Source of the DNA: a virus
Lineage: Duplodnaviria > Heunggongvirae > Uroviricota > Caudoviricetes
IMG/VR virus record: IMGVR_UViG_2568526722_000002
Coordinates: 1 to 54,562 of that record
Reading direction: 5' to 3' (one strand)
Length of the DNA: 54,562 bases
Part shown: piece after piece, positions 14,925-16,303 of the stretch
Numbering within the stretch: the stretch's first letter is position 1
How the letters are laid out: each line of letters starts with the position of its first letter
Notes under the pieces: model-generated
The model's input: only the letters and a program-made list of their open reading frames with translations
The model's database searches: none
What the model was told of the DNA's origin: nothing
Position numbers and translations under genes: made by a program

Positions 14925-15212
14925 GTGTTTAAACGGTTAAGTAAGAGAATGATTTTAATAAATAAATACACTCCTCCAACGCAGGAAGATTTAGCCAGAC
15001 TGAAATCCGCAATAAACTACTCCGGAAACCAAATGGCAGGGCTCGCAGGTGTAGCCAGCGATAGCCAATGGCGGAAATACACTGGCGGAGAGAGCCCCAG
15101 GGTAATGTCAAGACACATACTGTTTTATATTGCAGCTCAGCTTGTTCTGTCTGATGAGCAACTTAACAATGTAATAAATAAAATGCGCGATATTGGCGCG
15201 GAGATAAAATAA
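14925..15212 (+). CDS. small HTH (XRE-like) protein
   Basis: 95 aa with a helix-turn-helix-like segment (QEDLARLKSAINYSGNQMAGLAGVASDSQWRKY); its stop overlaps the acyltransferase start (TAATG). Confidence 0.45.
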   Translation: MFKRLSKRMILINKYTPPTQEDLARLKSAINYSGNQMAGLAGVASDSQWRKYTGGESPRVMSRHILFYIAAQLVLSDEQLNNVINKMRDIGAEIK

Positions 15213-16303
15213 TGCTTGGCCTAATAAGGTTTTTTTTGGCATCGTGCGTCATTGCTTTTCACTTAACGGCTCGCATACCTGCACTTGGCAACTTTGCAGT
15301 GAATTGCTTCTATGTTATCAGTGGTTTTTTAATAACATACATTTTGCATGAAACATACAAGTTCAACTTCTCTATGTTTTGGAAAAATAGAATACTGAGG
15401 TTATTCCCGGCATATATATTTTTTCTCGTCATGGGCTTTCTTATTATAAAATTAATTCCATCCGCAAAGGAATTCCACTCAAACTGGACAGGCAATTTCT
15501 TACCTGGAGATTTATTAGGAAACCTCTTAATCTTCCCCTGGGCTTTCCTTTCTGATAATGCTGTAGCAAATCCATTCGGTGCCTTTTCATCCATTTATCA
15601 CTTTGCTATTGATGGTAATAGATTCAGAATAGTCACATCATCATGGTCAGTGGGTGTTGAGATAACATGTTATTTTTTATTGTGGCTTTTCATAGCCCGA
15701 AATAAATTTACAGCCATTACGTCGATTCTGCTTTCACTGCTTTATCATGCTTACGTATATGTAGTACACCATTCTTTTGATATGGCGTATTTCCCATTCC
15801 TTGCTGCAACACTTCCTTTTAGCATGGGTTCTCTGGGTTATTTTGCCCATAGAAAGTTCAAAGCTATGTATCTTTCTCCACACAAAGCTTTTTTAATAAC
15901 ATTTATTTGCATCGGGATTTTTATTACCAATTGGTATTTATATACAATTAATGCATTAGGTCAGTACAACATAATACTTTACTACACCAATAATGTAATA
16001 GCATTGTTTACAACCCTGGTATTATTAAAAATAAAGACAAACATACATCTTGAGAAAATACTCAAGTGGTTTGGTGACCTGGCCTATCCAATTTTTCTTT
16101 GTCAATATTTTGGTGGATTTCTAGCATGGCTTGCTATTGGTGGTGAAAATCGTGGCTTATCCATCTTTTTATTAGGCTACCCAATATCAATTGCACTTGG
16201 GATCGTTTGTGTAATATTAATAGACAAGCCACTAATTAAAATTAGAGCAAAAATAAGGGCGGACGCTCAAAGCAAAAATAATCAGGAAAACTCTTCAAGG
16301 TAA
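15212..16303 (+). CDS. acyltransferase-3 family membrane protein (O-acetyltransferase type)
   Basis: 363 aa, multi-TM; conserved His in TM1 (IAFHL), FYVISGFLI motif and RILRLFPAY motif; opposite strand to the flanking tail genes. Confidence 0.8.
   Translation: MLGLIRFFLASCVIAFHLTARIPALGNFAVNCFYVISGFLITYILHETYKFNFSMFWKNRILRLFPAYIFFLVMGFLIIKLIPSAKEFHSNWTGNFLPGDLLGNLLIFPWAFLSDNAVANPFGAFSSIYHFAIDGNRFRIVTSSWSVGVEITCYFLLWLFIARNKFTAITSILLSLLYHAYVYVVHHSFDMAYFPFLAATLPFSMGSLGYFAHRKFKAMYLSPHKAFLITFICIGIFITNWYLYTINALGQYNIILYYTNNVIALFTTLVLLKIKTNIHLEKILKWFGDLAYPIFLCQYFGGFLAWLAIGGENRGLSIFLLGYPISIALGIVCVILIDKPLIKIRAKIRADAQSKNNQENSSR

Follow-up and report, generated by a model that had tools for sequence, protein, structure and literature searches.

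An opposite-strand helix-turn-helix and acyltransferase-3 cassette among the tail genes of an Escherichia coli prophage, with the O9 polymannose O-antigen as candidate acceptor

The window analysed here, the whole 54,562 nucleotides of IMG/VR virus record IMGVR_UViG_2568526722_000002 (Caudoviricetes), holds an E. coli prophage that extends from ~11.3 kb to an integrase gene at its end (53369-54562). Among the tail genes of this prophage lies a two-gene cassette composed of ORF1, which encodes a small helix-turn-helix (HTH) protein, and a gene for an integral-membrane acyltransferase-3 (AT3) enzyme. Judged from its sequence, the cassette has the features expected of a lysogenic-conversion gene, because it combines the catalytic motifs of AT3 enzymes, a promoter of its own directed against the late operon, a foreign base composition (GC) and retention in intact form in decayed prophages. 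It is likely, in our estimate, that the prophage expresses a surface-glycan acyltransferase; given an active enzyme, the chance that the O9 O-antigen would serve as its acceptor is put, from the host association and gene context, at even or slightly better.

The acyltransferase cassette and its association with O9 strains

The cassette consists of ORF1 (14949..15212, plus strand) followed by the AT3 gene (15212..16303, plus strand), and is flanked on each side by minus-strand tail genes. The two frames meet in the sequence TAATG, in which the stop codon of ORF1 (TAA, 15210-15212) overlaps the start codon of AT3 (ATG, 15212-15214), and the 3′ end of AT3 overlaps the convergent gene of a Gly_rich_2 tail fibre by 22 nt. 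The GC content is 35% for the AT3 gene and 43% for ORF1, as compared with 54% for the phage body. A sigma-70-like promoter, found by consensus scan, precedes the cassette on the same strand (14888..14916; TTGACG, 17 nt, TAACAT). An earlier note on this DNA, made from the letters alone, had described two plus-strand genes amid minus-strand tail genes, a TAATG overlap pointing to translational coupling, and an acyltransferase-3 bearing FYVISGFLI, RILRLFPAY and a histidine in its first transmembrane segment. The arrangement and the overlap were borne out by direct reading of the frames and flanking strands, and the enzyme by its PF01757 match, motifs and ten-helix model.

The AT3 product (363 aa; ACYLTRANSFERASE) matches PF01757, its only Pfam domain, at 57.9 bits (cut-off 31; E 1.2e-15), with residues 4-336 corresponding to profile positions 6-323 of 326; it also matches phrog_3333 (‘O-acetyltransferase'). 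The R-X10-H motif is found in the first transmembrane helix, and its R6 and H17 are each kept in at least 90% of the sequences in an alignment of about 40 homologues. The second transmembrane helix holds an FFxISG-type motif (F33-Y-V-I-S37-G38, within F33-YVISGFLI), of which F33 and S37 are invariant in the family alignment, as are both arginines of the RXXR motif (R60-I-L-R63, within R60-ILRLFPAY) that follows helices 2/3. Residues of the R/K-X10-H, FFxISG-type and RXXR motifs are essential in Oac, OafA and OafB (PMC7448272). An AlphaFold2 (AF2) model (pLDDT 94.8) has ten long helices over the 363 aa and no extra domain, that is, the AT3-only architecture. Foldseek comparison of this model with PDB and BFVD gave only noise (TM below 0.25), and phmmer against PDB gave no match. 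On the profile and motif evidence, membership in the AT3 family is solid and acyl transfer to an extracytoplasmic glycan would be the expected function, while the enzyme is, as far as sequence comparison reaches, the orthologue of no characterised one.

Homologues of AT3 fall into 85 clusters, and those of 40-65% identity occur in Enterobacterales and Pseudomonas. Ten of the 13 contexts inspected are prophages in which the gene is convergent on the last tail gene, with tails of the Mu-like and E217-like myovirus or the lambda-like siphovirus type.

In E. coli, the cassette is present in 32 of 5426 complete genomes (~0.6%), always full-length and at 98.8-100% nucleotide identity. It is always accompanied by DNA of the window's Gly_rich_2 fibre: all 32 genomes with this particular fibre DNA have the cassette, and conversely. 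The frames of both ORF1 and AT3 are intact in the four carriers that were translated (HS, CM148361, JNQH497 and EC20). Moreover, about ten genomes that keep only 628 nt of the fibre gene still have the cassette at full length (100% of the query, 99.5-99.6% nucleotide identity). Between the window and EC20, the most diverged E. coli allele, there are 12 synonymous and 3 non-synonymous changes, and AT3 shows purifying selection. The prophage is heavily decayed in many O9 strains (E. coli HS, that is, locus L001, plus loci L107 and L108 and about ten others), where the baseplate is lost and the 628-nt fibre remnant lies beside a RusA gene; the HTH-AT3 cassette and a gene for a tail protein with a SASA esterase are still full-length there.

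The O9 gene cluster wbdA-wbdD-wzt-wzm was found in at least 22 of the 32 carriers, as compared with 202-292 of the 5426 genomes overall (~4-5%); this typing covers 23 of the carriers, leaves nine untyped and is uncorrected for host relatedness. Among the 22 O9 carriers, 13 stand among the best 60 of the matches listed, two others are named O9:H10, EC20, PCN061, 13P484A and ES2 were checked directly, and three clonemates of EC20 were assigned by similarity and not inspected. Three integration sites and six or more types of tail protein are represented among the O9 carriers, which are therefore not one clone with one prophage. The O9 antigen is synthesized via the ABC-transporter pathway, not the Wzy pathway, and the E. 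coli O9 polymer is identical to that of Klebsiella O3; we know of no O-acetylation of the O9 antigen.

A second line of evidence on the acceptor is the context of an AT3 homologue, 51% identical, on a low-GC contig of a Legionella-like metagenome-assembled genome (JASGFU010000095.1; L112:864-6981). The gene order is wbdD-wbdA-AT3-wbdB, and the identity to the O9 enzymes of E. coli HS is 41% for WbdD, 63% for WbdA and 49% for WbdB. This order puts the homologue within a polymannose cluster of the O9 type and suggests that the Legionella-like organism makes an O-acetylated polymannose O-antigen. A metagenome survey for further wbd-linked AT3 homologues returned only distant ones (at most 35% identity) beside Wzm/Wzt. 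Furthermore, the capsule loci differ among carriers while AT3 is 98.8-100% identical, and since the enzyme is nearly invariant beside such variable loci, a K-antigen acceptor is disfavoured.

ORF1, its operator and a slot for glycan cargo

ORF1 had been listed from a GTG codon (14925..15212, 95 aa). More than 30 homologues align from the in-frame ATG at 14949, with M1, Y7, P9, P10, L15 and K19 conserved, and since their alignments begin there with conserved N-terminal residues, the true start is almost certainly 14949 and the product 87 aa long. PGAP annotation of this gene is inconsistent (59 aa, 87 aa or no call). The protein matches phrog_20491 (E 1e-29), while no model of Pfam (PF01381, HTH_3, included) or NCBIfam matched even at E = 10. 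Its AF2 model (pLDDT 85.8) consists of five helices, and the top Foldseek matches in PDB are all XRE-type HTH structures, namely the HTH domain of AcrIF24, Aca10, HigA, Aca1 and the controller (C) proteins of restriction-modification (R-M) systems, with probability up to 1.0 and TM of 0.5-0.84, at weak E-values (0.014 or above). The homologues form 86 clusters, many of them named XRE or HTH by their sources. The assignment as an HTH protein in the earlier note is therefore kept, as an XRE/Cro fold, on the strength of the predicted structure and these names; profile matches to known HTH families did not bear it out, and the start of the gene had to be moved.

ORF1 as the immunity repressor of the prophage was considered and rejected: a lambdoid switch with an HTH_3 repressor (44911-45297), YdaT and O/P lies at 42-45 kb. 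Because the immunity repressor and switch are found elsewhere, ORF1 is taken to be a local regulator.

Most ORF1 homologues are preceded by a near-consensus sigma-70 promoter whose 17-nt spacer holds the palindrome TAGCACC-AAW-GGGGCTA (consensus of the homologues' promoters, TAGCACCAAAGGGGCTA), the final two bases of which are the first two of the -10 element. Promoter and palindrome are positioned ~270-300 nt (or 60-130 nt) upstream of the homologues (loci L003, L006 and L019-L098). The common layout runs from the promoter through a gene for a ~57-aa membrane protein and a GC hairpin directly before the HTH gene (AGCCCCGAAAGGGGCTTTTT) to the ORF1 homologue and its cargo. The window is without the ~57-aa gene and the hairpin, so that its promoter immediately precedes ORF1, and its copy of the palindrome, which reaches from the spacer into the first bases of the -10 element, is degenerate (CCGCCCC-TTC-AGGGCTA, 14896-14912). 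From clade to clade (Enterobacterales, Pseudomonas, Burkholderiales) both half-sites change in a symmetric manner, to TAGGCCC..GGGCCTA in Pseudomonas and to TAGACCC..GGGTCTA and TAGCCCC..GGTGCTA in Burkholderiales. Such symmetric covariation is, at the level of sequence, the mark of an operator bound by a dimeric protein, and ORF1 would be the simplest candidate for binding it.

Homologues of ORF1 (50-71% identity) were located in 80 genomes and 18 phages, and the genes downstream of them are very different. The cargo includes several unrelated AT3s, an AT3-SGNH fusion, four hexapeptide acetyltransferases and two Wzy-like proteins, as well as GT2 and GT4 glycosyltransferases, SGNH esterases and a GH43-like protein. 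An ORF1 homologue can also be the final prophage gene, with host genes coming next. Conversely, the AT3 lineage of the window often occurs without ORF1. From these contexts, ORF1 is not itself cargo but a widespread, presumably regulatory gene placed at the head of a cargo slot. Because it heads varied cargo and the AT3 lineage is often found without it, ORF1 and AT3 are not one moron (a unit with transcription of its own that has been added to a phage genome), and the proposal in the earlier note that the two form a single conversion unit was abandoned.

The arrangement resembles that of the Aca proteins and R-M C-proteins, which like ORF1 are small XRE-fold HTH proteins encoded in one operon with their cargo and have a palindromic operator inside the operon promoter. 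ORF1 differs from them in that no membership at the level of sequence and no PADLOC or Pfam match was found, and in that the cargo of its slot is mostly glycan-modifying enzymes. The promoter/operator module could serve as a useful marker for lysogenic-conversion cargo in prophages, and its compactness makes it a candidate for use as a self-regulated expression cassette.

Proposed mechanism and competing explanations

In the explanation that we prefer, and which taken as a whole chain is held with moderate confidence, the cassette would be an accessory operon carried by a lambdoid prophage that has a Mu-type baseplate. During lysogeny, the sigma-70 promoter at 14888-14916 would drive both of the coupled genes in the direction opposite to the late tail operon, itself silent at this stage, and ORF1 would most likely bind the palindrome in this promoter and autoregulate the operon, as Aca and R-M C-proteins do. 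The ten-helix AT3 would use R-X10-H and RXXR to bring an acyl group across the membrane through its pore (the usual group is acetyl, supplied by acetyl-CoA in the cytoplasm), and would O-acylate a glycan at the periplasmic face while this glycan is still lipid-linked. The most likely acceptor would be an O9-type polymannose O-antigen, and its acylation would alter the receptor or antigen met by phages and antibodies.

A number of points weigh against this explanation. The likeness of AT3 to characterised O-antigen acetyltransferases is confined to the superfamily motifs: the hhalign alignment with Sf6 Oac covers only ~70 N-terminal residues/columns (probability 88.7), and tblastn against 50,697 phage genomes matched no known converting phage (Sf6, those of OacB/C/D, PhiV10). 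Its functional assignment, like that of its homologues of 45% identity or above, is made from sequence. AT3 enzymes also modify capsule, enterobacterial common antigen (ECA), osmoregulated periplasmic glucans, peptidoglycan and secreted metabolites (PMC9558356). With respect to the acceptor, the wbd-linked homologue is known from a single contig, a literature search on O-acetylated O9 or polymannose and on this prophage found no report, and the enrichment of O9 could come from phage host range or host clonality instead of enzyme specificity. One of the 23 typed carriers, Ec1117 (O30), is not O9. As for expression, the palindrome of the window departs from TAGCACC-AAW-GGGGCTA at 3 of 14 positions, ORF1 has a poor Shine-Dalgarno sequence, and no terminator-like site was found after AT3, which ends inside the convergent fibre gene. 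The Ec1117 locus itself (L106:40246-41452) has an O30-family cluster in which the wzx flippase gene is frameshifted, and the strain may be rough.

These points bear on the suggestion of the earlier note that the genes are a likely serotype-converting moron akin to phage O-antigen O-acetyltransferases, of which only a part was retained. The AT3 identity holds, as do a conserved promoter of its own together with a deviant composition (35% versus 54% GC), and strand and predicted promoter would make it a prophage gene independent of, and opposite to, the late genes. Kinship with the phage enzymes was not found beyond the superfamily motifs, as seen from the ~70 residues shared with Sf6 Oac and the 50,697 phages without a match. 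No empty-site relative with the flanking genes adjacent and without insert was found either, every E. coli genome with the fibre of the window having the cassette and relatives having other cargo. Because there is neither a terminator nor an empty-site relative, the cassette corresponds to the strict definition of a moron only in part.

There is a smaller, though still appreciable, chance that AT3 is functional from the prophage but acts on another envelope glycan (group 1 K-antigen capsule, ECA, lipopolysaccharide core or osmoregulated periplasmic glucans), in which case O9 would mark host range only. The substrates of the AT3 family are indeed diverse (PMC9558356), group 1 capsule loci adjoin the O9 cluster in all O9 carriers inspected, three carbohydrate-esterase tail proteins (GDSL, a second GDSL and SASA) adjoin the cassette, and one carrier is O30 with a frameshifted wzx. 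However, the capsule loci vary among carriers in which AT3 is 98.8-100% identical, the closest non-phage AT3 homologue is inside a wbdD-wbdA-wbdB O-polysaccharide (O-PS) cluster and not a capsule or ECA cluster, and the tail protein varies freely beside a constant AT3. That the main role is in the lytic cycle and not in lysogeny we regard as improbable: acylation of the receptor on the dying cell would prevent progeny from adsorbing to debris, and the virion esterase would be the matching receptor-destroying or unmasking enzyme. Progeny detachment was proposed by the authors of the Serratia phage vB_SspM_BZS1 study (PMC7556043), the tail protein of the window has an SGNH esterase domain, and in the prophage of E. 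coli DY612 an AT3 in the same slot shares the strand of the late tail genes. Yet the cassette of the window runs against the late operon from a promoter of the housekeeping type, it is intact in prophage remnants no longer able to make virions, and esterase tail proteins are not obligatory, since beta-helix, TolB-like and CotH-like ones adjoin the same cassette.

Less probable again is the view that ORF1 is the important gene, regulating the divergent gene of the large tail protein or another phage or host promoter, with AT3 as an interchangeable passenger of little effect in E. coli. In its favour, ORF1 surpasses the AT3 lineage in conservation (60-71%) and, by far, in breadth of distribution, it precedes unrelated cargo, and in the window and BZS1 alike its promoter/operator is separated by ~40-65 nt from the beginning of the divergent tail-protein gene; in other phages, however, the divergent neighbour of the ORF1 homologue is a lysis gene or an integrase, and the AT3 lineage is kept without ORF1 in many prophages and shows purifying selection. 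That the cassette is a decaying, non-functional remnant is the least probable of these views, and very improbable. The degenerate operator, the weak ribosome-binding site of ORF1 and the defective state of many carrier prophages would fit it, whereas both frames are intact in the four carriers translated, the cassette is full-length at 98.8-100% in all 32, the catalytic motifs are all kept, and the ratio of synonymous to non-synonymous changes is 12:3.

The preferred explanation can be extended to a broader proposal that we offer tentatively, with rather less than an even chance of being right: the prophage family O-acetylates O9/Klebsiella O3 polymannose, AT3 is exchanged between phages as a block with the tip of the short fibre that would recognize this receptor, and ORF1 with its operator constitutes a widespread, self-regulated glycan-cargo slot. 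The hosts of this slot would be temperate phages of Enterobacterales, Pseudomonas and Burkholderiales. Acetylation forms no part of O9 serology at present, yet the reference commensal strain E. coli HS carries the genes. O9 strains are common among commensal, livestock and multidrug-resistant clinical E. coli. If O9 polymannose were acetylated, there would be two chemical forms of O9 that current serotyping and gene-cluster typing do not tell apart, with consequences for host range in phage therapy, for O-antigen vaccines and for Klebsiella O3, whose polymer is the same. Otherwise, the cassette would be a further example of a known strategy, in which a temperate phage alters a surface glycan by means of a gene adjoining its receptor-binding genes.

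Related systems, tail neighbours and prophage setting

The architecture of the cassette and its reading have already been published for the Serratia phage vB_SspM_BZS1, where an AT3 gene (p24) and an HTH gene (p25) run against the direction of the tail genes (Bujak et al. 2020, PMC7556043); the window is thus a further case of a known and fairly ordinary type of accessory gene. Mass spectrometry detected p27, the neighbouring tail protein, and p28 in the virions of that phage, and an acetylation/deacetylation of the O-antigen was put forward as an explicitly speculative hypothesis (PMC7556043). The p24-p27 region and the window have in common a Mu-type baseplate, a short fibre, an opposite-strand HTH gene followed by AT3, and then the genes of a large virion tail protein and of another virion protein. 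Identity amounts to 63-66% between ORF1 and p25, and in the N-termini to 75% for the tail protein and 77% for the fibre. In contrast, p24 is from a different AT3 lineage without significant similarity to AT3 of the window, the bodies of the two tail proteins are unrelated, and in BZS1 the HTH gene is preceded by an additional 57-aa transmembrane gene and by a terminator-like hairpin, both missing from the window. The virion-associated p28 is the positional counterpart of a 251-aa protein of the window (12320..13075, minus strand), with no sequence similarity to it.

By analogy, the nearest functional counterparts of AT3 would be Sf6 Oac and its relatives and, for a homopolymer exported by an ABC transporter, Lag-1 of Legionella pneumophila. 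Sf6 Oac/OacA, OacB, OacC, OacD and the PhiV10 acetylase are, like AT3 of the window, AT3-only enzymes with R/K-X10-H, FFxISG and RXXR, and are prophage-borne. The Sf6 oac gene is also transcribed opposite to the late genes and located beside the receptor-binding protein gene; unlike the cassette, it lies between the tailspike gene and int, has a terminator and has no HTH partner. The effect expected of Oac-type enzymes is O-acetylation of the O-antigen that blocks superinfection (PMC9558356). Lag-1 is likewise AT3-only and is thought to act on an ABC-transporter-dependent homopolymeric O-PS (PMC9558356), and the closest non-phage homologue of AT3 is in a Legionella-like O-PS cluster; Lag-1 differs in being chromosomal and in having legionaminic acid, not mannose, as substrate. 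A Burkholderia phage paper was set aside, as it concerns an unrelated P2-like switch.

The cassette is bordered on its upstream side by the gene of a large receptor-binding tail protein (13072..14847, minus strand) that is divergent from ORF1. The protein is 591 aa from the PGAP start, its frame reaches 14916, and a C-terminal GDSL/SGNH domain matches PF13472 at 40.5 bits (cut-off 32.9), with the SGNH blocks I (GDS), II (GNG), III (GTND) and V (DGLH) recognized by eye. Through this SGNH/GDSL domain with its four conserved blocks the tail protein recalls, as context only, the virion acetyl-esterases (Vi phages and Salmonella phage c341; cited in PMC7556043), and related prophages carry tail proteins with SASA or other GDSL domains. 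The cassette does not, however, keep an esterase as constant partner. The N-terminus of the tail protein is a conserved anchor, its first 48 aa being 75% identical to BZS1 p27, and beside the same cassette the rest can be of two GDSL types, SASA esterase, beta-helix, TolB-like, CotH-like or of types not recognized. The GDSL/SGNH tail-protein module and the 251-aa protein occur also in argW prophages without the cassette. An obligatory pair of AT3 and SGNH esterase, either as a split OafA-like enzyme or as a fixed lock and key, was rejected in view of these varied neighbours and of the SGNH module without the cassette.

On the downstream side, the short tail fibre with its C-terminal Gly_rich_2 domain (16282..17067, minus strand) was identified by PF21722 and tail-fibre PHROGs. 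The fibre protein WP_001310746.1 accompanies the cassette in the inspected E. coli loci with an intact prophage and a cassette of the 99-100% type, and W21 and EC20 have near-identical variants under other accessions. Comparison with a Klebsiella pneumoniae prophage (L013) located a boundary of exchange: its baseplate is 98.6% identical to that of the window, and the tail-protein N-terminus, intergenic region, ORF1 and first 200 nt of AT3 are 88% identical, while 15408-16797 (the AT3 body and fibre C-terminus) is unalignable. From this alignment, the AT3 body and the distal short fibre were replaced together as one block. A further prophage locus, L006, has a different baseplate type but the same block: the C-terminus of ORF1, AT3 with its 22-nt overlap, and the fibre tip.

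BZS1, Klebsiella prophages and E. coli DY612 have unrelated AT3 genes in the slot between short fibre and large tail protein, and AT3 beside receptor-binding genes is, from these loci, a recurrent theme of the phage group in which no tail protein is a fixed partner. In the DY612 prophage (L201:4577-5629), the unrelated AT3 gene is bordered by the genes of the short fibre and of a CotH-like tail protein; it shares the strand of the tail genes, and no HTH gene accompanies it.

The prophage as a whole combines Mu-type baseplate genes, located on the minus strand beyond the tail genes that flank the cassette, with a lambdoid, Rac-like early region (HTH_3 repressor, YdaT, O/P, NinG and RecE/RecT). 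The closest complete genomes are those of JNQH497 and JNQH498, at 99.9% identity across the cassette and adjoining tail genes. No nucleotide match was found among the 50,697 known phage genomes, no match to the PADLOC defence-system models, and no match to Rfam in 11-18 kb of the window. The 251-aa protein, which travels with the large tail protein, matches phrog_34046 and is placed by context only. The last two genes of the tail-protein module (11384-12093, minus strand) encode an UmuD-like S24 peptidase (phrog_3469) and a small phrog_3893 protein; the same pair, of 318 nt and 240 nt, follows SGNH tail proteins in the unrelated argW prophages L017 and L018.

Just outside the tail-fibre end of the prophage is a gene for a Pin/Hin-type serine recombinase (Resolvase plus HTH_7; 10144-10692, minus strand), which may be an orphan or remnant. 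An invertible tail-fibre segment was considered and rejected: the best inverted repeats are 15-19 nt at 79-93%, and the orientation is constant in all loci seen. The window copy of the prophage appears to be inserted at the yciI/tonB-kch site, and a C-terminal fragment of yecD (isochorismatase family; 10859-11160) adjoins its end, whereas the copies in JNQH497, Ec1117 and EC20 adjoin an intact yecD. The yecD 3′ fragment may be part of the phage attachment region, or may have moved along with flanking DNA.

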